Positions 5,550-47,052 of a DNA stretch of 64,000 nucleotides are shown here, piece after piece. The stretch's first letter is position 1, and every line of letters begins with the position of its first letter. The notes under the pieces were generated by a model. It made no database searches. It was not told the DNA's origin and worked only from the letters and a program-made list of their open reading frames with translations. A program made the position numbers and the translations under genes. Origin of the DNA: a virus. The stretch is from IMG/VR virus record IMGVR_UViG_3300032516_000007, positions 1 through 64,000 of that record, one strand, 5' to 3'.

Positions 5550-6300
5550 TTGGGATTTCTTTTGTCCCTCAGATCCAATGTGGGACCTGGGGCATCGTGA
5601 GGCAGAATTCTTTGTCAGCGCAATTTGGAGGGCGCGTGGGGGTCTAATTTCACAGATGAATACCTCTGGAGCGGAGGATGAGTTCTGGACTTGGATCCAG
5701 AACTATTGGAAGCTTGATACAAATCGGCTTCATGTCTCGGAGTCGCATCTGGATGTTCATACTCTCATGGAATCCCACTCCAGGTTGATTCTGGTGGACG
5801 CACATCATGATTGTTGGTCTTCCACGAAGGTCAAAACTGGGTGGAATATTGACTGTGCAACTTGGGCAACTTCGTGGTTGCGTAGATCACCGTTTCATCG
5901 CATGCTCTGGATTCGTCCCGATTGGCAGACAGGTGGAAGCATTACCAGCAAGATTGCCAAGGACATCAGAAAGCAGATCACCATCGTAGCTATGTCCAAG
6001 GTTGGTAAGCTTTCCTCTGTGAAGAAATGGCTAGGTCGAAGGATCGACGATGCTCACATCTGTCGATCAGGTTGCTGGTCTCCTCCCTGGTTGGATGAGA
6101 AATTCCTTAGCCTGGTGAAGAGCTATCCGAATTTGTCAAAGATCATCAACATGGAGAGGAGTGGGCGTTCGGAGGTGTGGAACCCCATGAAGATCCGATG
6201 GAAGGAGGAGGATCGAAAGGCTGTGTTGAAGGGATATGAAGACATGAGGAGAATGGTCGATCTTCTACAGGATCCAGATCAAAAGTGCTTGACAACTTAG
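5530..6300 (+). CDS. UPF0489-like / arginase-deacetylase-fold metallohydrolase
   Basis: ILSLDWDFF, ESH, LVDAHHD, ICRSGCWSPP motifs. Confidence 0.55.
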   Translation: MTILSLDWDFFCPSDPMWDLGHREAEFFVSAIWRARGGLISQMNTSGAEDEFWTWIQNYWKLDTNRLHVSESHLDVHTLMESHSRLILVDAHHDCWSSTKVKTGWNIDCATWATSWLRRSPFHRMLWIRPDWQTGGSITSKIAKDIRKQITIVAMSKVGKLSSVKKWLGRRIDDAHICRSGCWSPPWLDEKFLSLVKSYPNLSKIINMERSGRSEVWNPMKIRWKEEDRKAVLKGYEDMRRMVDLLQDPDQKCLTT

Positions 6301-6333
6301 ATTAACTAGATCAACATCCATTAAGATCAACAT
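6289..6333 (+). promoter_or_regulatory. Candidate promoter with AGATCAACAT direct repeat
   Basis: TTGACA 6289-6294, weak -10 CAACAT at 17 bp; AGATCAACAT at 6308 and 6324. Confidence 0.4.
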
Positions 6334-6354
6334 GCAACGTGCCTGGAGGACACA

Positions 6355-7023
6355 ATGGCAAAGGTAGTGAAGGTCGAGGGGTTCAGCAGCAAGGAGCAGA
6401 AGATTCTCAATGCGCTTTCCAACGGGGAGCAACACAACATTCGGGAGCTGAAGAAGCTCTTCTGGGAGGCTGCCAAGGCACACTGTGCCGAGATCTACGA
6501 GAAGGGATGGGGCGAGCATGAGGTCAATGGGCAGGCCCAGAGTTACGTGCGAAACAGCGTGCGTCGCCTGATCCGTGACGGCTGGGTTGAGGGGCCACAC
6601 ATGAACGAGAACCTTCCCAGGGGCACCTACAAGCTCACCCGCTCCGGTCGTGATCGGGTTGCCAAGGGTGTGTCGATCACGCCCTCTCTCAAGGAGAGAG
6701 ACGCTCGTCGGGAGGGGCGCAAGGCCAACACGGCTGCCAAGAAGGCCAAGAAGGCTCCCGAGGCCAAGAAGGAGAAGAAGGTCAAGGTGAAGGCAGCTCC
6801 CAAGGCCAAGAAGGCTCCCAAGGCCAAGAAGGCTTCCAAGACAGCCGCCCCCAAGAAGGCCAAGGCCAAGGTGAAGGCCAAGCCCGCGAATGGGGCTCAG
6901 GCGAAGGCTCAGGCAGCCAAGGCGAAGGTTTCGAAGGAGGCAGCCAGGGAGAAGGCTCAGGATGCAGCTCGCCGAGCTGCTGAGGAGCCGAAGTCAGAAA
7001 CGTCCACGCCCACCGCGAACTGA
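6355..7023 (+). CDS. Winged-helix DNA-binding protein with histone H1-like Lys/Ala/Pro tail
   Basis: VRNSVRRLIRDGWVE...GTYKLT winged-helix pattern; repeated KAKKAP tail; strong GGAGG RBS. Confidence 0.7.
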   Translation: MAKVVKVEGFSSKEQKILNALSNGEQHNIRELKKLFWEAAKAHCAEIYEKGWGEHEVNGQAQSYVRNSVRRLIRDGWVEGPHMNENLPRGTYKLTRSGRDRVAKGVSITPSLKERDARREGRKANTAAKKAKKAPEAKKEKKVKVKAAPKAKKAPKAKKASKTAAPKKAKAKVKAKPANGAQAKAQAAKAKVSKEAAREKAQDAARRAAEEPKSETSTPTAN

Positions 7024-22960: not shown

Positions 22961-23532
22961 TGGCAGCTCACGAGAGAGTCTACCTAGCTGTAGACGTTAA
23001 CAACTTGTGGCACTCATGCCGTGAGGTGTACGGGATCACTGCACGTGTGAACTACGCTGGCTTGCTTGCCAAGATCAAGAAGGGTGGATTCACTCAGGTT
23101 CCAAGAGATGTGGTAGCAGTTGCCTATACCATCACTGCACCTCATCGAAGAGTGGCTGGTGATGGACGTGTGCGGGAGGAGGGTTCCAGAAACACTAGGT
23201 TCCTAAGCTCACTTGAACGCTTTGGCTACGAGGTTCGCACTCGGCATATGAAGTACGAAAAGGGGATTGAGAAGCCCTTTCACACAGACTGGGATGTGGG
23301 CATTGCTGTGGATGCACTCCAGCAGATTCACGCATTCGATACCTTTATCATTGCTAGTGGTGATGGGGACTATGCCCCACTTGTGGAGAAGATTCAAAGG
23401 GACGGAAAGCGAGTGGAGGTCTACACCTTCCGCAACTCAGCTTCAATGATCCTGTATCAGCAGGCAGATAGCATGGTTTTCCTGACTGAAGAGGATATCT
23501 ATCGAGAGTCAACATCAGGAACACAAGGATGA
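22957..23532 (+). CDS. NYN/LabA (PIN-like) domain protein
   Basis: VDVNN, DWDVGIAVD, SGDGDY. Confidence 0.88.
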   Translation: MMAAHERVYLAVDVNNLWHSCREVYGITARVNYAGLLAKIKKGGFTQVPRDVVAVAYTITAPHRRVAGDGRVREEGSRNTRFLSSLERFGYEVRTRHMKYEKGIEKPFHTDWDVGIAVDALQQIHAFDTFIIASGDGDYAPLVEKIQRDGKRVEVYTFRNSASMILYQQADSMVFLTEEDIYRESTSGTQG

Positions 23533-25388
23533 CCACACCAGCCCCCATCAAGAGGACTCCTGCTAAGCTTGGGGTCAAGATCCAACGTACTCCGGTCAAG
23601 GTGAAGAAGTCCATTTCCCCCCAGCAGCAATCCTTTCAGAGCATGTTCGGTTCATTGGCTCCACCTCAGCAACAAATCTTCAATGCCAACCTACAGGCAG
23701 TCAGTCCCAAGAATGTCACCCCTGACCAACTGAAAGCTCTCAGTGAGGCGAGCTTCCCACTGTGGGTTATCACTTCTGGCATCAGGGTTGATCATCGTGC
23801 CTTCGATTTTGATAAGCACAAGTATCTCATCCCGCTCTACATGGATCGTGCTCAAGAAGTGATCTTGATGAAGTCAGCTCAGATGGGTGCCACCATTTGG
23901 CTACTTCTCAGGTTGATTCATTTTTGTAAGACCAACTCTGCCAAGGCATGTTTGTTCTTTCCCACTGACGAAGGTGTGAAGCTTCTCTCAAAAGATCGGT
24001 TGGCTCCACTGATTGCTTCCAATGCAGAGCTGGCAGCTCTGATCAAGGACACAGATACGCTGGGGTATAAGCAAATTGGAGTGGACAGTTCTTTCTATCT
24101 TCGTCACCTAGGTGGTGTGGCCTCAAAGGACTCAACACCTTTTGACATGATTGCCTTTGATGAGGTTCGATTGCTTGACGCATCGGACATCTATCAAGCT
24201 CGAGAGCGTGTTAGTCATAGTAATTTCAAGAATGTTCTTCAAGTATCTACTGCCGGATATCCTAACCACGATATACATAGACAATTCTTAAGAGGTACAC
24301 AAAACTATTGGCACACACGATGCAATTGCTCAGATGGTGTTATTCTGAGTGAAGTCTTTCCTGATTGCATGGCAGTTGTGGGTAAGAAGGTTTACTATCG
24401 TTGCCCACGATGCAAGATGAGGATTGATGATCCTCAAAATGGTCAGTTCCTGCCCCACAGTCCAGGGGCTCCGGTTCAGAGCTATCACATTCATCAGATG
24501 TTATCGAAGTTCATCTCTCCTGCTGAAATCTGGGAGAACTACAAGACCACACAGAATATCAAAGAGTTCTTCAACGCCAAACTGGGTAAGCCTTATGTAG
24601 ATGAGGAGAACATTCCCATCACTGATGATGATCTTGAAGCTTGCACCAATACTGATGTGATGTGGATGGAGAAGACCCAGAAGGCAGCCGTGGCCATGGG
24701 CATTGATCAGATGGGTGGCCACAACTACATCATCATCGCCAAACGACTGCCAGGTGGAAAGAAGAGAGTCCTACACTTTGAGATCGTGGATGACCAGAAT
24801 CCAATCTACTGGGAGGCCGGAAAGAGGGTTACCCCTTTCAAACGTGGCTACCAACTGATGAAGGAGTACGATGTTGATCTGTGCATCATAGATGCGATGC
24901 CCAATGCCAACGAGGCAATGGAGTTCGCTCGTGCATTCCCCAAGAGAGTTTTTGTGGCCTGGTACGTTGAACAGCAACGTGAGATCGTCCATTGGGGAGA
25001 TCGCCCCAAGTACAAGATGCTCGTGAGGAAGGGTGGGCCTCAGGTCAAGTTCAAGTACACCTGCCTGCTGAGTCGATACCTCAGCATTGATCTGGCAATG
25101 CGGTCAATTGCAGAGCGTGAGGTGGAGTGGCCCAGTCCTCGGGCTCTGGTTCAAGAGTGTCGTCACCCTAAGACGGGATACTTCGAGCCTTTGTACATCT
25201 TCGAGACTCACTTTTACGAGCACATGAAAAGCATTGTGCGTCAGAAGACGGTTGTCAATGAGGCCACAGGGGCTTTCAAAATGGAGTGGGTTAACCTCGG
25301 TCTAGATCCACACTCTGTTCATTGTTGGAACTACTGTAACATAGCTTTGGAAAGATTGAGAAGAACCCCACTCATGACTTTTGCATAG
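23529..25388 (+). CDS. Terminase large subunit (GpA-like)
   Basis: KSAQMGAT, AFDE, VST, Cys pairs, LGKPY, nuclease GID and IIDAMP. Confidence 0.88.
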   Translation: MTTPAPIKRTPAKLGVKIQRTPVKVKKSISPQQQSFQSMFGSLAPPQQQIFNANLQAVSPKNVTPDQLKALSEASFPLWVITSGIRVDHRAFDFDKHKYLIPLYMDRAQEVILMKSAQMGATIWLLLRLIHFCKTNSAKACLFFPTDEGVKLLSKDRLAPLIASNAELAALIKDTDTLGYKQIGVDSSFYLRHLGGVASKDSTPFDMIAFDEVRLLDASDIYQARERVSHSNFKNVLQVSTAGYPNHDIHRQFLRGTQNYWHTRCNCSDGVILSEVFPDCMAVVGKKVYYRCPRCKMRIDDPQNGQFLPHSPGAPVQSYHIHQMLSKFISPAEIWENYKTTQNIKEFFNAKLGKPYVDEENIPITDDDLEACTNTDVMWMEKTQKAAVAMGIDQMGGHNYIIIAKRLPGGKKRVLHFEIVDDQNPIYWEAGKRVTPFKRGYQLMKEYDVDLCIIDAMPNANEAMEFARAFPKRVFVAWYVEQQREIVHWGDRPKYKMLVRKGGPQVKFKYTCLLSRYLSIDLAMRSIAEREVEWPSPRALVQECRHPKTGYFEPLYIFETHFYEHMKSIVRQKTVVNEATGAFKMEWVNLGLDPHSVHCWNYCNIALERLRRTPLMTFA

Positions 25389-30205: not shown

Positions 30206-30385
30206 ATGATCAAGATTGAAACAGAGATGATGGAGTTGAGTTTCAACAAACCAAAGAATGCAGAGACCATACAAAGCAAGGTGCAAAATAGAGCTAAGGA
30301 TGGGTGGACTCTACGCTCTGCATTCGAGGGTTCTGATGCTTGCATATACATGATCTTCGCAAAGAAGGTCAAAGCTACTAAGTAG
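30206..30385 (+). CDS. 59-aa protein, DUF4177-like (not in ORF track)
   Basis: MIKIETEMMELSF...AKDGWTL...MIFAK; GGAGG upstream. Confidence 0.5.
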   Translation: MIKIETEMMELSFNKPKNAETIQSKVQNRAKDGWTLRSAFEGSDACIYMIFAKKVKATK

Positions 30386-30399
30386 GGTTCATACATACA

Positions 30400-30876
30400 A
30401 TGCCTGTACTCAAATCAGATTGCATTAGCAAAGGAGACACCATAAAGGTGTTAGGGGGAACAGCTTTTGCTGGTCAGTCAGGCATTGCTATGGAGGACAA
30501 TTTTGGTCGCCACGGAATGGTCTCGGTTCAATTCGAAGGATACCCCAATCCAAGGCGCATTGATGCCAACCGCTTGAAGGTGACCAGACACGATCCAAAC
30601 TCTCCACAGGTAGTGTCGAGGCATGTGCCCCCTACATACATTGGTCCTGTGGGAAAGCCTCCTCTTGGGAAGGTGCCTGCACACATCAACGAAGTAAGGA
30701 AGATCATCAGGGGCATCAAGACTAGCAAGGACAAAGCAATAGCCACAAGGCAAACTCTCGTGCAAAGCTTCCCAACACAAGAAGATCGGGACCAAGAGGA
30801 AGCCCTCATACATACAAGAGCCCATCGCTTCACTGAGCTTCGCAGGGCAAGGCTCACAGTCGCTTACTGGAAATGA
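30400..30876 (+). CDS. Hypothetical protein with KOW/SH3-like N-terminus
   Basis: KGDTIKVLGG..FAGQSG. Confidence 0.55.
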   Translation: MPVLKSDCISKGDTIKVLGGTAFAGQSGIAMEDNFGRHGMVSVQFEGYPNPRRIDANRLKVTRHDPNSPQVVSRHVPPTYIGPVGKPPLGKVPAHINEVRKIIRGIKTSKDKAIATRQTLVQSFPTQEDRDQEEALIHTRAHRFTELRRARLTVAYWK

Positions 30877-30908
30877 GCATGGTCACTCATCCCAGTGACC
30901 ATGCTCAT
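30873..30908. repeat. Perfect 15-bp inverted repeat
   Basis: ATGAGCATGGTCACT-catccc-AGTGACCATGCTCAT. Confidence 0.9.
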
Positions 30909-30978
30909 ACTCTTGATTCTAGAACCAAGAGCTATCGCCTAGGATAGCTTCACTAACCACTAGGAGCCGGGACCATAC

Positions 30979-31530
30979 ATGCTTGTAATCAAATCGCTTT
31001 TGGAGCCCATACCTGAACAGATGAGCGACCATGTTGCCCCGGTCTACTGGGATGGCAAAGCCTGGGGCAAGGGGCTCGAGTGGGCAGCCACATACACAAG
31101 CCTAGATGATCTTCCAATAAAGATAGGATCATCTTTATTGGACCGCAATAGCAACCCGCTTTGCTACCGCATACAAGGGAAGGAAGCAATGGGGGAAGCA
31201 ATTGCTTTGGTCGAGATTATCAGGACCAAGGAGGAGCTTCCGGCTAACCTACCCTGCTACTACATACATGCTGATCTTCACATTGCTACGCAATTAGAGA
31301 AGATCCAAATCCTTACCCTGGTCAACCAAGCTTTGAATGCCGTTATCTGTCCTGCTATGGAAGTCTTGAGCCTACATGTAGATGTGATCCCAGATAACAG
31401 AGCAAGAGTGAAGCCAAGATCATTGCAAGCTAGCTCAATTACAAGAACCCCCTTGATTCTAGAACCAAGAACCATGACCGACGTTATCGACCAAGCTAAG
31501 GACCCTACCCTACCCAAGAAGCCTAAGTGA
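30979..31530 (+). CDS. Hypothetical protein
   Basis: 183 aa ORF running into the repeat island. Confidence 0.45.
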   Translation: MLVIKSLLEPIPEQMSDHVAPVYWDGKAWGKGLEWAATYTSLDDLPIKIGSSLLDRNSNPLCYRIQGKEAMGEAIALVEIIRTKEELPANLPCYYIHADLHIATQLEKIQILTLVNQALNAVICPAMEVLSLHVDVIPDNRARVKPRSLQASSITRTPLILEPRTMTDVIDQAKDPTLPKKPK

Positions 31531-31633
31531 TCTTTAATATCTAAGAAGATCATCAAAGCAGCTCCCCAACCCCTCATACATACAAGCCCAAGCTAAGGAC
31601 CCTACCCTGCCCCTCATACATACATACAAGCCC
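31491..31633 (+). repeat. Interleaved direct repeats CCAAGCTAAGGACCCTACCCT (31491, 31588) and CCCCTCATACATACA (31570, 31610)
   Basis: Read directly. Confidence 0.85.
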
Positions 31634-32147
31634 TGCTCTCGCCAGGCCCTACCCTGCCCTGGGGATGCTTCTTGGAGCCCTCTGGCTTCGCTATGCTTCG
31701 GGCTCATACATACACATACATCAAGGATAATCGATCTTCAATTCCATTGCCTAAGCCCTTGGGATCACTCTTTCCCCTAGCTTCGCTACAATCAAGATGA
31801 TTGGGTATCAATGAGCCAATGAATGATCTTGCCTCTCATGATCATTTCTATCTATCTGAATATATAAACCTTTCACTCATTATATCCTGATTCTAGAATC
31901 ACATCACTCTTGAATTATCTAAGTGATCTTAGCATGTTGAATCGTTGTAACCGTGATTCTAGAACCATGAGTGATCCCGAGTATCCTACCCTACCCTAGA
32001 CTGGGGTAACCATGGGGTAATCCAGCCATTCAATCCAAAGCTAAAGCCACTCATACATACACATACATACATGAGAGAAAAACCCTACCCTACCCTGGGC
32101 TACCCCACCCTAGGGTATCTCCCTCGGCAAAAGAAAAGATCAATGCT

Positions 32148-32181
32148 CATACATACATACATACATACATACATACATACA
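32148..32181 (+). repeat. Microsatellite (CATA)8CA
   Basis: Read directly. Confidence 0.95.
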
Positions 32182-32228
32182 ATCAAGATGGGAATGACAA
32201 AGGGGTAGGGTAGCCAAGGGCAGGGATG

Positions 32229-32277
32229 GCTTGCTTTGCTTTGCTTTGGTTGCTTTGCTTTGGTTGCTTTGTTTTGG
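32229..32277 (+). repeat. Degenerate TTGCT/TTGGT pentamer tract
   Basis: Read directly. Confidence 0.9.
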
Positions 32278-32837
32278 GCCTGTGGTCATGAGAGATGAGA
32301 GTCTAGAGTCAAGGTCGAGAGGATAGGGATAGGGGGGATGATTGATAGGCCCTGTGATGATTGATGTCCTGTGGGGAGATGGATAGAGAGGGTGGATGGT
32401 AGAGGGAATGACAGGGTAGGGCCTAGACCCTAGAATCAAGCTCCCTAGGAGCCCCCAGCCCTTGCCTAGGCCCTGCCCTATAGGGACAAGGACTAGACTC
32501 AACCTAGTGAAGATGGGGCTCACCACAGAGCAGCCTACCTTGACCACAGAGCAGCCAGCGAGAGCCCCCCTTGAACAAGCAGGTAGACGACCGTGGGACC
32601 CCTTAGGAATAGGACTTCCCTAGGGCTTATGGATTTTATACTAGCCAAAGAGAAACCTAGTGAAGATGGGGGCCACCCCCTTGAAGATGGGGAGGGGTAA
32701 AATGGAGATGGGACCCCTTTAGGATTGGCGGGGGAGGAATGATAAAGGAGAGCACATGGAGGCCATCCTTTAGGACCACCAGGGGTAGTGGTCAAGAGAT
32801 CCTAAGACCACAAGCTCTGATGCTAGAACCAAGAGCA

Positions 32838-32921
32838 GGGCAAGATTGAGCATGCTGGGGTGGTATCAAGGCATGCTGGGGGCAAGATTGAGGATGCTGG
32901 GGGCAAGATTGAGGATGCTGG
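32838..32921 (+). repeat. Four tandem 21-bp units GGGCAAGATTGAGGATGCTGG (second unit divergent)
   Basis: Units at 32838, 32859, 32880, 32901. Confidence 0.9.
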
Positions 32922-35429: not shown

Positions 35430-35687
35430 ATGAGAGATGATCCCATCAAAAGGATCGTTATGGACAAGATCATCGGGCAGCACGTTGTGGCGGATGGGTA
35501 TCCTCTCTATGATGCTCCAGATTCGATTATGCTGGCCAGGTATATCGAGCATCAGCTTCGTCGATCTGAGGAGTCTGGACGAACCAGTTTCTGGGCTTCG
35601 CAGGTTGCTGTTCCTTGTTTGAACAGTGCAGCCGTTAAGATTCGCGAGTTGCAGAAGCAAATCGATGAACTGAAGTCTAGAAGTTAG
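35430..35687 (+). CDS. Hypothetical protein
   Basis: GGAGGTG RBS. Confidence 0.5.
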   Translation: MRDDPIKRIVMDKIIGQHVVADGYPLYDAPDSIMLARYIEHQLRRSEESGRTSFWASQVAVPCLNSAAVKIRELQKQIDELKSRS

Positions 35688-35689
35688 AT

Positions 35690-36011
35690 ATGAAAATGCC
35701 CGCCAAGCACCATTGCCTGACGGGCCGTAGTGTATGAACCTGACTCGACGATAACGTGCAGACACACATGCGTTCCCAAGAAGTGAGACTAGCATGGATC
35801 AGAGATCGTCTGAATGATATTTGGTTCAGCGGAAAAGGTCCTGCTGGAGGGGAGATTCTCGATAAGTATAAAGAAGAGTTTGAAGCTCTTTTGCAAGAAG
35901 AGTTGAACTTGCAATCCGAATACCAGAGGGGGTCATGGAGAATAGGCAGAAATGAAAATGCCCGCCAAGCACTATTGCCTGACGGGCCAGTAGAGTGTGG
36001 ACTTGACTCGA
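35690..36011 (+). repeat. About 60-bp imperfect direct repeat with hairpin
   Basis: 35690-35748 and 35952-36011, starting ATGAAAATGCCCGCCAAGCACYATTGCCTGACGGGCC. Confidence 0.9.
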
Positions 36012-37527: not shown

Positions 37528-37912
37528 AGGAGTTTGGTCATTCCTGGTTCACTGCGGGTCAGGCCAAGATGACCAAGAGTCAGTTGAAGGAGCTGGAGGC
37601 GAAGGGTTATTTGGACTCATCGAAGTCCACTGGACCGACCAACTTTCGAGTCAAGATTGGGGGGTGATCTACCTCCGACAGATGACTCGACGTAGAGCTG
37701 GCCACCTTTGGGATTTCTTGGTTCTAGAATCACCGTATACAACACCGTGGAAGAAGCTGGATGAGTTCTTTTCCTATGGGTTCCCACGAACTTAACTCAA
37801 CCTGGTTAAGATGGGGAGCGATATAGTAGACGCTATCTTGGCTATAACGTAGATGGGGAGAACCCCCATGCCATTGACTACCATGCCAACAAGATCGAAA
37901 GGGAGAAAGTAA

Positions 37913-38119
37913 ATGGCACAGATGCTAGTTGTTGTGTCCAAGGTCAAGGCAATGGGGAAGGCAGTTGATTTTCGTATCTCGCTGGAGTTTTGTGAGAGGC
38001 TGAGTGAGAAGCTGGGGGACATTGTGATTGCGGCTGTCAAGATTGCACATGCTGATGGGAGGGGGACCGTGAAGGCACGGGACATGCCTATCATCACTTT
38101 GGAGTCCAAGGAGGAGTGA
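37913..38119 (+). CDS. Bacterial-type histone-fold protein (Bd0055-like)
   Basis: LVVVSKVK...LS.KL....A...A.ADGRGTVKARD, with the histone-fold R-x-T-V-x-x-x-D signature. Confidence 0.85.
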   Translation: MAQMLVVVSKVKAMGKAVDFRISLEFCERLSEKLGDIVIAAVKIAHADGRGTVKARDMPIITLESKEE

Positions 38120-38120
38120 C

Positions 38121-38615
38121 ATGACCAAGCCCAAGGCTAAGTCCAAGAAGTTGAATCCCTGGAAATCCTTCGATAAGGCTCTCGAGATCAAGAAGGAGCC
38201 TGAGAAGGTGCTGACTAAGGAGGAGAAGGTTGAGGTCAAGAGGTTGGAAGTAGAGATCAAGATCCTGGTAAAGGAGAGGAAGAAGATCGTGAAACAGGAG
38301 GATGATCTGTGCTCTAGGTCATACCAACTGGAGGAGGAAGGTCCCAACTATGAAATATCGGATGCGATCATCAATGACATGAGAGAGATTCCCAGGGTGA
38401 GCAAGCAGGTAGGAATTGATCCCCGTCGATATATCGAGGCGTGCAAGCTCTACCTCAAAGCCTGGAAGGATCTGGACAAGAAGTTCGCTGCGGCGAAGAA
38501 GAAGGTAGACGAAGAAATAGAGAAGGTTCAGGAAAAGAAAGATAGTCAAGATGCCGTGATCGATGATCTCAAGGAGAAGCGTCAAGAGCTGAAGCCGAGT
38601 CCGTCCTTTTTCTAG
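38121..38615 (+). CDS. Coiled-coil protein
   Basis: K/E-rich; GGAGGAG RBS. Confidence 0.6.
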   Translation: MTKPKAKSKKLNPWKSFDKALEIKKEPEKVLTKEEKVEVKRLEVEIKILVKERKKIVKQEDDLCSRSYQLEEEGPNYEISDAIINDMREIPRVSKQVGIDPRRYIEACKLYLKAWKDLDKKFAAAKKKVDEEIEKVQEKKDSQDAVIDDLKEKRQELKPSPSFF

Positions 38616-42694: not shown

Positions 42695-45103
42695 GTGGAC
42701 CCACGGATCTCCCGTCAGGTTGATCAGGGGCAACTCAAAAAGGGATTAGATCTCATTGGTCAGTTGATGAGGTTGTCCCTCATCAAAGCTGATGAGACCA
42801 AGGGACCCCTGCCTGGGCAGGCCAAGCTACCAGGAACAAGTCAGGAACCATTTACTTTTAAGCAGCCTGGCGGCGTTCGTCTGACTACTCGTCCGTCTTC
42901 ACCAACCAGGCCAGTAGCATCTGGACCTCAACTCAAGCTGCCAGGGCATGAACCCCATCAGTCAAATCTTCCTCAGACAGAGAAGATCACTCCCAAAGTT
43001 CTACCTGAGCCTCATGCTCCTGAGAAACGTGAGCATGAGGCTGGTCCGCTTCTGATCGGTGGTGGACAATCAAAGCAAGCAGATTGGGGAGGTCTCGAGG
43101 CAGCAGCAAAAAGGGCTCAGGCTGCTGGTCCTGCATTTAAGCAAGAATCTGGATCAAAGATTTTCACTCCTGAGGGTCGAATAGTTGATCCTTCAGGGAA
43201 AACTCCATCTCGTCAACGTTTGGGTCAAGAGACGATGATGGCTGCACCCAGATCTGCCACACCTAAGATTGTGGTTCCGGGTGCGGAAAAGCCATCGGCT
43301 GAGATCATAACTCCTGGACCTCAATCAAAACCAGGAGCGGAGATCATTAAGCCTGCTCCAACTGTTGAGCCTTCAATTGGAACAGAGGGGCGTCGTAAGG
43401 AGATGATTGGTGAGGGGCTCGAGGCTGTCAGTTCAAAGCCAGGAGAAGAACGGACAGCAGCGATGAAAAGGACAGCAGCTCTTCTTGGTTCTAGAGGAAG
43501 AGAACGAGCTGCTGAAGCCCCAGTTTCGACGGAAGCTCGTCTGGCAACTCCTCAAAGTTACTGGATGCCAGGTAAGCCAGGTAAAGATCAACCTGCTGAA
43601 GCGAAAGTTCTTGGTAAACCAGAGGGTGAGGGTGATCTTACTACTGGGGAGGGTGGTAAGGAGCCATCTGGTAAGAAGGGTGGGAAGGAACCATCCGGGC
43701 TTCCTCCTTCGGGTTGGGATCCCTTCAAGAAGCTCAGTCGGAGAAGCAAAAGAAGAGGACCAAATCTTATAGGAGGATATGGGTTTGGTCATGCTATGGG
43801 GGCTACAGCAGCGTCACCGGGAGGGGGAGCTGCCCAGCTTGGAATGTTGACTGGGAGGGCGGTTTCAACGGTTCATGGATTGCTCAATCGTCAGGGCTCT
43901 CGTTACGGATCTCGTTATGAGATGGCTCGGCTTGGTCGGGAAGGTGAGCTGACTCGTCGAGCCCAACTTGGAAGAATGCAGGGTGAGGCTGGGGGTGTCA
44001 TGACCCAAGGTTCCATGGTAAGATCATTGTTCATTAGGGTTGATGATGGAGGGAATGAGCTGGTAAAATCTAGGATCAAACCTAAGAAACCAAAGTCTCG
44101 TCTTTTTGTTTCTCTCTATTCCAATTCTGCTTTGTTTGGGCGTGGAAAGAAGGAGAAGGAAAAGGAGCCAACGGTTCAGCTTCCGACTCTCATGCCTAAG
44201 ACTTCAAAACCTCGCACCGTCACTCTTTTTGGAAAAGCCAAGGATGAGTTCATTCCTGATCCTCAGAATGAGGATATCCAGCCAGATGAGGAAGATGGTG
44301 TGGCATCTGTGTTGGTGGGCGATAGTGATCTGGTGAGCAAGGCAGCTCGAGGACCCCGACCCCGACGGAGGACCCGGCGCTTGATCTTACATCATGAGAA
44401 GAAGATGGTGGAGCATCAGAATCTCATGGTCACGAGTCCCACTGCGGAGGGTGCGAATCTTCACGCTAAGGCAATGGGCCTACACCTTCAAGCTAGGGGT
44501 AGGCATATGAGAGGGGATGCCAGAGCAGAAAAGACTAGCATAGAAGCAAATGTTGCTAGTGAGTCTGCACATAGTGGGATCAACAAGGCTGGGGCAGCTC
44601 AAGAATCAACTGGAAGGTGGACCCTCGAAGATCCAGTACAGGCCAAGCGGGAGCAAGAGCATGGTCTGTATCGTCAACCCACAGGTGTGAGTGGTGGGCC
44701 AACTCCTGATCTTCCGGAGAGAGGTAAGGATTGGCATGGTACGGTTCCTGGGGTTCCCGACGAACCTCAGGATGATGATGAGGAAGAGATTGAGGAAACT
44801 TGGGCGGCTCCAAAGCCAATTCTGGAATCAGAAAAGAAGAAGACTTCAGAGGTGAGTAAAGCACTTGCCTCCTACTGTAGAACTCAGCAAAGAGCACGGG
44901 ATGTATTGAAGTCTCTCCCTGATCTCCATATTGGCCCAGATCTCTCTCCTCGTGAGTTGGAGTTTTTGAAATCACAGGGTGTTGATGATGACGCTATCAT
45001 ACGAGGTAATCTCAGGATCACTCCTCGCATGAGAGTTGAGTTTCGACAGTTCATGACGGACAGAGTGTTCAAGTCTCTGTCTGGGTTGAGGAATCAGACA
45101 TGA
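42695..45103 (+). CDS. Large low-complexity head-module protein with many x-K-[A/S/G] motifs
   Basis: LIKA, LVKS, FGKA, VSKA, INKA, VSKA, VLKS, VFKS; directly upstream of portal. Confidence 0.65.
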   Translation: MDPRISRQVDQGQLKKGLDLIGQLMRLSLIKADETKGPLPGQAKLPGTSQEPFTFKQPGGVRLTTRPSSPTRPVASGPQLKLPGHEPHQSNLPQTEKITPKVLPEPHAPEKREHEAGPLLIGGGQSKQADWGGLEAAAKRAQAAGPAFKQESGSKIFTPEGRIVDPSGKTPSRQRLGQETMMAAPRSATPKIVVPGAEKPSAEIITPGPQSKPGAEIIKPAPTVEPSIGTEGRRKEMIGEGLEAVSSKPGEERTAAMKRTAALLGSRGRERAAEAPVSTEARLATPQSYWMPGKPGKDQPAEAKVLGKPEGEGDLTTGEGGKEPSGKKGGKEPSGLPPSGWDPFKKLSRRSKRRGPNLIGGYGFGHAMGATAASPGGGAAQLGMLTGRAVSTVHGLLNRQGSRYGSRYEMARLGREGELTRRAQLGRMQGEAGGVMTQGSMVRSLFIRVDDGGNELVKSRIKPKKPKSRLFVSLYSNSALFGRGKKEKEKEPTVQLPTLMPKTSKPRTVTLFGKAKDEFIPDPQNEDIQPDEEDGVASVLVGDSDLVSKAARGPRPRRRTRRLILHHEKKMVEHQNLMVTSPTAEGANLHAKAMGLHLQARGRHMRGDARAEKTSIEANVASESAHSGINKAGAAQESTGRWTLEDPVQAKREQEHGLYRQPTGVSGGPTPDLPERGKDWHGTVPGVPDEPQDDDEEEIEETWAAPKPILESEKKKTSEVSKALASYCRTQQRARDVLKSLPDLHIGPDLSPRELEFLKSQGVDDDAIIRGNLRITPRMRVEFRQFMTDRVFKSLSGLRNQT

Positions 45104-47052
45104 TGCCCGGTGTTGACTATTCTGCAATTCAGAAGTCCATCGCAGACAGCACTCGTCTTGAGGACATCTATTCTGATGCCCAGCAGCTCAAGGCGATGAC
45201 CTCTCATGTTCCTGTGGTTACCAAGCAAGATCCAGAAGCTCTCCAGAAGGCGTGGCGCACCATGTCTATGGAGAAGCCTGTAAAGGGTCCTAAGTCTGTC
45301 TTCTTTGATCCTTTATCTCTTCAGTATGCGATGGGGTACAAGGATCGTCGATATTCCTTGACCTATGATACGTTGAAAAGAATCGTCAACCAGCTCAGCA
45401 TTGTGGCTGCGATTGTTAACACACGTATCGCTCAAATTGCTGCCTTTGCAATGCCTTATAGAACTACCAAGTCTCTTGGCTTCATGGTTAAGCACAAGAG
45501 TCCAGAGCACATGACCACTCAGAGTGAGCGACGTTTCATTCAGATGCTTGAAGCGTTTGTCTCAAGTTGTGGTGAGCCTGGGCGGCGAAATCCGTACAGT
45601 AGGTTTGATCGAGACGACTTCGAGGCGTTTTTGAAGAAGATCGTCAGGGATACGATGACCTATGACCAGATCGGAATTGAGATTGTTCCCAGGAACAATA
45701 CCATTCCCTTTGAGTTTCTGGCAGTGGATGGTTCTACACTTCGTCTGGCATCGGCTGACCGATTTCCTGGAAGCGGGAGTGAGTACAGTTACCATGCTCG
45801 AAATGTGGTGGGAGGTTTTACACCTTATCGTTTCCAAGGACTCTACACGGGATCCTATGGCTTAAACAATCCGCGACAAACTGATCCCGAGTCCATTCAG
45901 TATGTGCAGGTTGTCAATGGTCAGATCGAGAATGTTTACACTCGAGATGAGTTGGCTTTTGGCGTTCGGAATCCTCGAACAGATATCTACATTCAGGGAT
46001 ATGGTTTCGGAGAGATTGAGCAGCTCATTACCATCATCACTTCTCTTCTTTATGCCGAGGAGTACAACAAAAGATATTTCACCCAGGGATCCCATCCTAA
46101 GGGAGTTCTCAACTTTAAGGGAGATAACTGGACTCCAGACCAGCTCGAAGCATTCAAGCGTCAATGGATTGCTCAAGTAGCTGGAACAGAGAACAGTTGG
46201 AAGACTCCTATCACTCAGTCAGAGGGGATTGAGTGGATCAACCTCCAGATGTCCAACAAAGAGATGGAGTTTGGACGTTGGATTGAATACTTGATCAAGA
46301 TCGTTTGTGGTGTGTTTCTCATTGATCCCGCTGAGATCAACTTTGACCTTCATGGTGGTGTTCAACAGACACCCCTTTTCGAATCAAGTCAGGAATGGAA
46401 GCTCAAGGCTTCTCGGGATCGAGGGCTCAAGCCTCTTCTTCGCTTCATTGCCAAACTGATCAATACTCATATCATCGACAAGATCGATGACCACTTTGTT
46501 TTTGAGTTTGTGGGTCTGGATGAGCTTTCAGAGCAAGAGAAGCATGAGATGCTCAAGGAGCAGACCGCAAGCTACATGACTCTCAATGAGGGACGACGGT
46601 CGCTGGATCTTCCTGATCTTCCCTACGGGGATGTTCCGATGAATCAAGCTTACCTCCAGGTTCTTCAGTTGAAGATGCAGGAGAATCAGCAGGCAGAACA
46701 GAAGGAGCAGCAGGAACAGCAGATGGCAGCCCAGCAGCAACAGGCAGCGGCTCAACAACCTGGCCAACCACCCTCGGGTCAAGAGGGAGCCCCACCTCAA
46801 GGCCCTGTGGGAGCCCCACCTCAAGGCCCTGTGGGAGCCTCACCTCAAGGAGTTCCTGGGGTGAATCCTGGTGGTCCTGAGGCTGCTGCTGGTGTTGGGG
46901 CGGTTCCAGAACCAACGGGAGAGCCCACACCAGAGGAAGCTGCTGCTGTGAATCCTCCTCCTCAGTACGCTGCCAATTTTGGCAAGTCAATGAAGGGTAG
47001 TAGGGAGATTGTTATTACCCTTGATCATTGGAAAGACATGAAGCGAGGCTAA
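45100..47052 (+). CDS. Portal protein
   Basis: YGFGEIE, NKRYFTQG..PKGVL, FKRQW, MEFGRWIEYL, IDPAEINF, GLKPLL; resembles SPO1/Twort-type portals. Confidence 0.88.
   Translation: MMPGVDYSAIQKSIADSTRLEDIYSDAQQLKAMTSHVPVVTKQDPEALQKAWRTMSMEKPVKGPKSVFFDPLSLQYAMGYKDRRYSLTYDTLKRIVNQLSIVAAIVNTRIAQIAAFAMPYRTTKSLGFMVKHKSPEHMTTQSERRFIQMLEAFVSSCGEPGRRNPYSRFDRDDFEAFLKKIVRDTMTYDQIGIEIVPRNNTIPFEFLAVDGSTLRLASADRFPGSGSEYSYHARNVVGGFTPYRFQGLYTGSYGLNNPRQTDPESIQYVQVVNGQIENVYTRDELAFGVRNPRTDIYIQGYGFGEIEQLITIITSLLYAEEYNKRYFTQGSHPKGVLNFKGDNWTPDQLEAFKRQWIAQVAGTENSWKTPITQSEGIEWINLQMSNKEMEFGRWIEYLIKIVCGVFLIDPAEINFDLHGGVQQTPLFESSQEWKLKASRDRGLKPLLRFIAKLINTHIIDKIDDHFVFEFVGLDELSEQEKHEMLKEQTASYMTLNEGRRSLDLPDLPYGDVPMNQAYLQVLQLKMQENQQAEQKEQQEQQMAAQQQQAAAQQPGQPPSGQEGAPPQGPVGAPPQGPVGASPQGVPGVNPGGPEAAAGVGAVPEPTGEPTPEEAAAVNPPPQYAANFGKSMKGSREIVITLDHWKDMKRG
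46786..46850 (+). repeat. 24-bp coding tandem repeat (GAPPQGPV) in portal tail
   Basis: GGAGCCCCACCTCAAGGCCCTGTG, about 2.7 copies. Confidence 0.85.

Follow-up and report, generated by a model that had tools for sequence, protein, structure and literature searches.

A histone encoded by a tailed phage might organise the phage's own DNA, package that DNA or attack the chromatin of the host, and it is the choice between these roles that is touched by the small gene described here. Histone-fold proteins were long believed to be absent from bacteria and bacterial viruses, and the only bacterial histones with bench data that we found are HBb (2023–24) and HLp (2025); no bench test of a phage-encoded histone was found in the literature. 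Phage histones of this kind were catalogued computationally in 2024–2025, so that the class is not new. The preliminary description of this DNA had called histones in tailed phages little characterised, which holds for their function but not for the class, which was already in the catalogues (PMC13681535; PMC11390915).

The stretch of DNA analysed (64,000 nucleotides, referred to below as the window) comprises the first 64 kb of a linear IMG/VR record of 115 kb, judged about 68% complete, and among the sequencing runs checked the DNA of this record is present only in sediment metagenomes. Nearly all genes of the record lie on the same strand, and TerL, portal, head protease, major head protein and tail fibre genes identify it as a tailed phage (the head protease, major head protein and tail fibre protein are encoded past the end of the window). 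DNA polymerase, SSB, RecA/UvsX and SbcCD are also among the phage genes, and TerL is at most 32% identical to that of any isolated phage. Neither a second histone gene nor a match to the HU family was found in the 115-kb record, but this absence of another nucleoid protein is provisional because part of the genome is missing from the record.

Identity of the gene at 37913–38119

The features of the locus that are used below are as follows.

37719–37732, no strand assigned: palindrome copy TGGTTCTAGAATCA (of the TGRTTCTAGAAYCA family), with TTCTAGAA at 37722; 181 nt before the ATG of the histone gene
37736–37741, + strand: −10-like hexamer TATACA, exactly 6 nt past TTCTAGAA; candidate promoter element
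37900–37905, + strand: Shine–Dalgarno-like AGGGAG, 7 nt before the histone ATG
37913–38119, + strand: histone gene of the α3-truncated HBb/Bd0055 type; ATG start, 68 aa, stop codon included
38121–38615, + strand: open reading frame of a 164-aa gene product with a lysine-rich N-terminus (KPKAKSKK) followed by a long helical hairpin

The 68-aa open reading frame was recovered at 37913–38119 on the + strand with exactly the termini given in the preliminary description. When the protein was compared with all PDB chains (phmmer) the best match was HBb/Bd0055 of Bdellovibrio (8fvx, 8cmp; E 8e-6, residues 1–60), and the alignment brings LVVxSKVK and AxADGRxTVxARD together with their HBb counterparts, which bears out the Bd0055 pattern noticed earlier; the next matches were HTkC (9f2c, 4e-5), HLp (9qt0, 9e-3) and HMfB (0.04). 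A family profile built from a 25-row alignment of single-fold relatives (A1) gave E 1.9e-19 against HBb, ahead of HTkC, HLp and HMf (4e-15 and 8e-13 for the face-to-face (FtF) histones HTkC and HLp, respectively), and six of the A1 members match CBFD_NFYB_HMF individually. Searching Pfam with the phage protein gave only a sub-threshold hit to DUF1931 (PF09123; 18.7 bits against a cut-off of 21.8), PHROGs held no family for it, and the matches in BFVD were weak (best E 3.8e-3), a 64-aa protein of an uncultured Caudovirales phage aligning at TM 0.74. Identification as a DUF1931 pseudodimeric doublet was rejected, as the score lies below the gathering threshold and the protein has a single fold rather than two fused ones.

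The reading frame is not a chance one, as homology and dN/dS rule this out, and the longer antisense open reading frames at 37792–38109 and 37925–38347 are without support and were taken as shadows of the + strand gene. Comparison with the 78%-identical copy on contig L008 (below) gave a dN/dS of about 0.07 (pN 0.14, pS 0.71), by which measure the histone gene is under strong purifying selection. A Shine–Dalgarno sequence stands at the same place in the orthologues (AAGGAGG in L008, AAGGAG in the related phage L004), while folding of the 5' leader was no better than that of shuffled sequences (z −1.6) and Rfam gave no match in the window. Immediately downstream, the ATG of the 164-aa gene lies 1 nt past the histone stop (TGAcATG), a junction that is identical in L008. 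This neighbour is rich in lysine and glutamate, and it is conserved only in the closest relative, the L008 copy being 41% identical and no copy being present in L004 or L005; it has no Pfam or PHROG family, and the Atlas gave only generic coiled-coil look-alikes for it.

Predicted fold, dimer and DNA contacts

The AlphaFold2 model of the protein (built on A1, pLDDT 92.8) has the three helices of a histone fold, without which, according to the preliminary description, the assignment would fail. Helix α1 spans residues 8–17, α2 residues 24–47 and α3 only the three residues 55–57; no helix follows residue 57 (DSSP on the model), and residues 61–68 have a mean pLDDT of 77. With its shortened α2 the model thus has the α3-truncated fold described as a category by Schwab et al. 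(PMC11390915). In a Foldseek search of the PDB the best matches are HBb structures (TM 0.80–0.88, rmsd 1.2–1.7 Å, 42% identity), so that both of the comparisons with Bd0055 named earlier as checks, by profile and by structure, favour the assignment. HLp and HTkC follow at TM 0.70–0.73, and nucleosomal histones lie at about 0.5 (HMfB 0.55); in HMfA/B α3 has about 10 residues as against three here, and by this and the weak match to HMfB the protein is not a nucleosomal archaeal histone.

Modelling of two copies gave an ipSAE of 0.66 against 0.00 for the best control and so passes the control test, the mark of which was attained by 20 out of 30 solved homodimers and by one of 23 single chains, although this pass may reflect likeness only, because the HBb dimer has already been solved. 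At least 97% of contacts were common to the dimer runs and the pLDDT of the partner was at least 82. The closest contacts are between residues 20–23 of one chain and 51–55 of the other, and the model also pairs residues 60–63 of both chains. The homodimer is thus predicted to be a histone handshake in which loop L1 lies against loop L2 of the partner, and the hydrophobic handshake interface is conserved. Taken with the tailed-phage genes of the record, the support from sequence, profile, predicted fold and predicted dimer identifies the protein as a phage-encoded histone of the Bd0055/HBb type. This much of the earlier interpretation stands; the two roles that it offered, coating of phage DNA and interference with the host histone, are not distinguishable from the present sequence data.

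HBb is a ‘bacterial dimer’ α3-truncated histone (8fvx, 8cmp, 9ezz, 9f0e; PMC11317129; PMC11390915), and the phage protein resembles it in the short α2, the three-residue α3, the LVVxSKVK motif, the α1 lysines, the R–D clamp and the predicted handshake dimer; neither protein has the face-to-face tetramer residues. The DNA contacts described for HBb by Hu et al. are N22, R57, S9, T53, T8, S24, K10, K12, K52 and K16 (PMC11317129), and seven of these 10 are identical in the phage protein when aligned by phmmer (S9, K10, K12, K16, S23, T52 and R56). Among the 25 relatives in A1, S9, K10 and K12 are invariant, T52 is nearly so and at least 90% have K16; the α1 lysines K10, K12 and K16 (HMM positions 11, 13 and 17) align with the HBb lysines of the same numbers. 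R50, T52 and D57 are all present and the intramolecular R50–D57 clamp is kept. On the strength of the seven retained contact residues we infer that the protein would bind and bend DNA non-specifically.

The phage protein departs from the cell-encoded HBb at the three other contacts, where N22 is replaced by R21, T8 by V8 and K52 by G51. The K52 contact is lost because RKT has become RGT, and at the position of the RKT lysine the relatives have G, S or K. The phage protein also differs from HBb in a 10-residue C-terminal extension that ends in the acidic sequence ESKEE and in its near-neutral net charge (+1, pI 7.9), which makes it less basic than typical nucleoid proteins.

Other histones share parts of this architecture. 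The FtF histones HLp (Leptospira perolatii, 9qt0-2) and HTkC (Thermococcus kodakarensis, 9f2c) have the α3-truncated fold in common with the phage protein, but the tetramer-interface residues R49, S52 and N53 of HLp (PMC12701072) correspond to I44, A47 and D48 in a profile alignment with 9qt0_A. Position 44 is R in close relatives such as P0002. As the FtF interface residues are absent, the phage protein is probably a dimer and not a DNA-wrapping tetramer. The ‘phage histones’ of Schwab et al. (2024) are likewise encoded by tailed phages and have an α3-type histone fold, but they carry a C-terminal helical tetramerisation domain and lack the RxTxxxD motif (PMC11390915), whereas the protein described here has no tetramerisation domain, keeps R50, T52 and D57 and ends in its tail of 10 residues. 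A further comparison is with 84 ‘bacterial-like’ proteins catalogued in IMG/VR Caudoviricetes as Bd0055-like monomers with a predicted dimer (PMC13681535). They agree with the phage protein in source database, in virus class, in fold and in the predicted dimer, and it very probably belongs to this set or lies close to it, although a C-terminal helix is described for the set (PMC13681535) and our model has none past residue 57. For this class the catalogue reports neither genomic context nor an analysis of selection nor a test of function (PMC13681535).

Relatives, gene order and upstream region

A search of 1.8 billion representatives gave 28 relatives at E ≤1e-3. We also noted that seven distant relatives of 118–133 aa (P0013, P0016, P0018, P0021, P0022, P0028 and P0032) have two histone-fold stretches each; judged from their sequences, fused doublet forms of the miniature histone exist in metagenomes. 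By tblastn nothing was found at E ≤0.01 in 50,697 GenBank phage records, a single-sequence pattern scan of viral contigs gave no relative, and neither single-sequence nor alignment-based pattern scans found one in 185,579 GTDB species genomes. The alignment-based scan of viral contigs yielded six loci (L002–L007), and a scan of metagenomes added L008, a contig deposited as a MAG, which is syntenic with the window from 37.9 to 45 kb and has a histone 78% identical to that of the window.

Three of the viral loci (L002, L003 and L004) represent a related phage with 67% identity in TerL, 54% in DNA polymerase and 54% in the histone, the gene for which has thus been retained. The order in L004 is DNA polymerase, SSB, histone, RecA/UvsX, SbcD and SbcC. 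A small open reading frame between histone and RecA/UvsX in this locus (6206–6591) has an EELGDLFWY motif recognised by eye only and reads like a MazG-type nucleotide pyrophosphohydrolase. L005 has a histone of 64% identity and shares several small genes with the window. L006 and L007 are phage records of 168–179 kb in which neither a TerL match nor any further protein of the window was found, apart from a weak partial polymerase match (32%) in L007; their histones are of 59 aa each and have LVVTSKVK and RKT as in HBb.

A maximum-likelihood tree separates these proteins into two groups (support 86/81). Group 1 comprises the window protein, L004, L005 and metagenome-only representatives, and group 2 comprises L006, L007 and more HBb-like proteins, where ‘HBb-like’ refers to visible motifs only (LVVTSKVK, GRKT), the tree having neither an HBb nor an HTkC row. 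Group 1 is marked by RGT or MGT where HBb has RKT, by R21, which is invariant, and by an acidic tail, the last ranging from EE to about 25 acidic residues and being present in almost all members of group 1 and mostly absent in group 2. Group 1 representatives are rare, come only from metagenomes and lie on contigs of no more than 46 kb, and those members with readable flanks all lie on DNA with genes in common with this phage. The subgroup with the acidic tail is therefore, as far as its sequences and flanks indicate, probably phage-only. The nearest ESM Atlas clusters occur most often in Bdellovibrionota, Planctomycetota and Myxococcota, all of them phyla with histones of this kind (PMC11390915).

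In the window and in L008 the histone gene is one of a block of small unknown genes, and the portal-containing block lies about 4.6 kb further downstream; in L004, by contrast, the histone gene is in the replication module, and because of this difference in position the signals from the neighbourhood are mixed. The large terminase gene (23529–25388) and the portal gene (45100–47052) are about 20 kb apart, separated mostly by small unknown genes including that of the histone, an arrangement that is unusual in a head module.

The preliminary description had placed a palindrome copy at 37722 and a candidate phage promoter upstream of the histone gene. The palindrome is beyond doubt: allowing no more than one mismatch, TGRTTCTAGAAYCA occurs 18 times in the window (262–63508) where 0.06 copies are expected, an excess of about 300-fold, and the whole record has 36 TTCTAGAA sites spanning 1717–112147. 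Support for the promoter is divided. At five of the 15 intergenic TTCTAGAA sites a match of at least four of six positions to TATAAT stands exactly six nucleotides downstream and at none of them at a spacing of 2–5 (p about 1e-5). These five sites, at 37722, 40297, 81978, 85226 and 91751, have the form GG/TG-TTCTAGAA-N6-TAnAnN, and that at 85226 precedes a virion structural protein gene while that at 81978 precedes a gene without a family match. On the other side, no promoter was called by a σ70 scan in front of the histone gene, the hexamer at the histone site has no −35 element and does not end in T, the palindrome is missing before the histone gene of L008 (the single 14-nt copy of L008 lies elsewhere) and the 12-kb locus of L004 has no TTCTAGAA. 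It is plausible from the spacing that the TTCTAGAA-N6 sites are a phage-specific class of promoter or operator.

Some further observations were made on the record. A poorly coding stretch of about 2.5 kb (30300–32900) is rich in repeats, with runs of CATACATA and repeated CCCTACCCT and GCTTTG, and contains five copies of the palindrome; GC skew in the window is negative only at 30–32 kb, and the region could be an origin or a regulatory hub. A 41-nt direct repeat (95% identity) is found at 35686–35726 and 35948–35988, 262 nt apart, inside or between small open reading frames. Beyond the window, a LAGLIDADG homing endonuclease gene (G000 92120–93028, equivalent to L017 4120–5025; PHROG E 6e-14) sits in the structural region, 3' of one of the promoter-like palindrome sites.

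Possible roles of the protein

We consider it rather likely that the protein is a dimeric, non-specific, DNA-bending nucleoid protein that acts on phage DNA. The dimer would bind the DNA backbone at minor grooves with no sequence preference, as HBb does, and would bend the bound DNA. The phage would thus make the histone as a nucleoid-associated protein of its own, and this would organise the phage DNA during replication, recombination or readiness for packaging, while the acidic C-terminal tail (ESKEE) may damp DNA binding or contact partner proteins. The placement of the gene within the replication–recombination module of L004 leans towards action on phage DNA. A functional analogy is offered by TF1, the HU-family DNA-bending protein of Bacillus phage SPO1, a large lytic phage that makes this small architectural dimer for use on its own DNA, although the HU fold is unrelated to the histone fold.

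Phages are known to target H-NS and HU, and the dimer might in the same way serve host take-over, by compacting or silencing the host nucleoid or by poisoning a host histone of the HBb type through mixed dimers. A host with its own histone is plausible because the phyla of the nearest Atlas clusters carry such histones, and conservation of the hydrophobic handshake interface also speaks for this role. We nevertheless regard this role as unlikely, as the pattern scan of 185,579 species genomes found no close cellular relative, the group is known only from metagenome contigs of at most 46 kb and all its members with readable context are in related phages. This looks like long vertical descent in phages and not recent capture from a host, and a position beside SSB and RecA, as in L004, fits phage DNA transactions better.

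More doubtful still is a virion or packaging histone, by analogy with the histones of giant viruses or adenovirus protein VII, which would be made late and would condense the DNA for packaging or ride in the capsid and be ejected with the DNA. Consistent with this the gene is, in the window and L008, on the same strand as the portal-containing block, which begins at 42.7 kb (portal at 45100), about 4.6 kb downstream, and its TTCTAGAA-N6-TATACA architecture is that of the virion-region sites at 81978 and 85226; but the protein has no propeptide, its match to a hydrophobic-x-K|A/S/G motif (M14-G15-K16-A17) is probably coincidental, being within the conserved α1 helix, where K16 is a DNA contact also found in cellular HBb and cleavage would ruin the fold, the promoter class is only putative and the L004 orthologue is in a replication module and lacks such a palindrome. 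Finally, a sequence-specific regulator whose two-fold dimer recognises TGRTTCTAGAAYCA, including the copy before its own gene, would suit the symmetry and over-representation of the palindrome and its presence upstream of the histone gene but is highly improbable, as HBb contacts only the DNA backbone (PMC11317129) and histone and palindrome do not travel together, L004 keeping the histone with no TTCTAGAA in 12 kb and L008 having its single 14-nt palindrome away from the histone gene.

Returning to a nucleoid protein that acts on phage DNA, a narrower and speculative form of this reading, which we think has little chance of being correct, is that group 1 is a phage-only lineage of HBb-type histones, vertically inherited in large sediment phages as part of their replication–recombination machinery, with an acidic tail that recruits partners or gates DNA binding. 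The tail would then have a part like that of the C-terminal tails in SSB or T7 gp2.5, and the protein, if this were true, would be a ‘replisome histone’ and not a chromatin protein of a general kind. What the present analysis adds to the catalogued class is modest: a subgroup with an acidic tail that is probably confined to phages, vertical retention of the gene in one phage clade under strong purifying selection, and movement of the gene between a replication module and the block that directly precedes the portal-containing one. Being short, with a confident predicted fold, strong selection, orthologues in a definable clade and, in one relative, a suggestive link to SSB and RecA, this phage histone is a clean candidate for a first bench test of such a protein.
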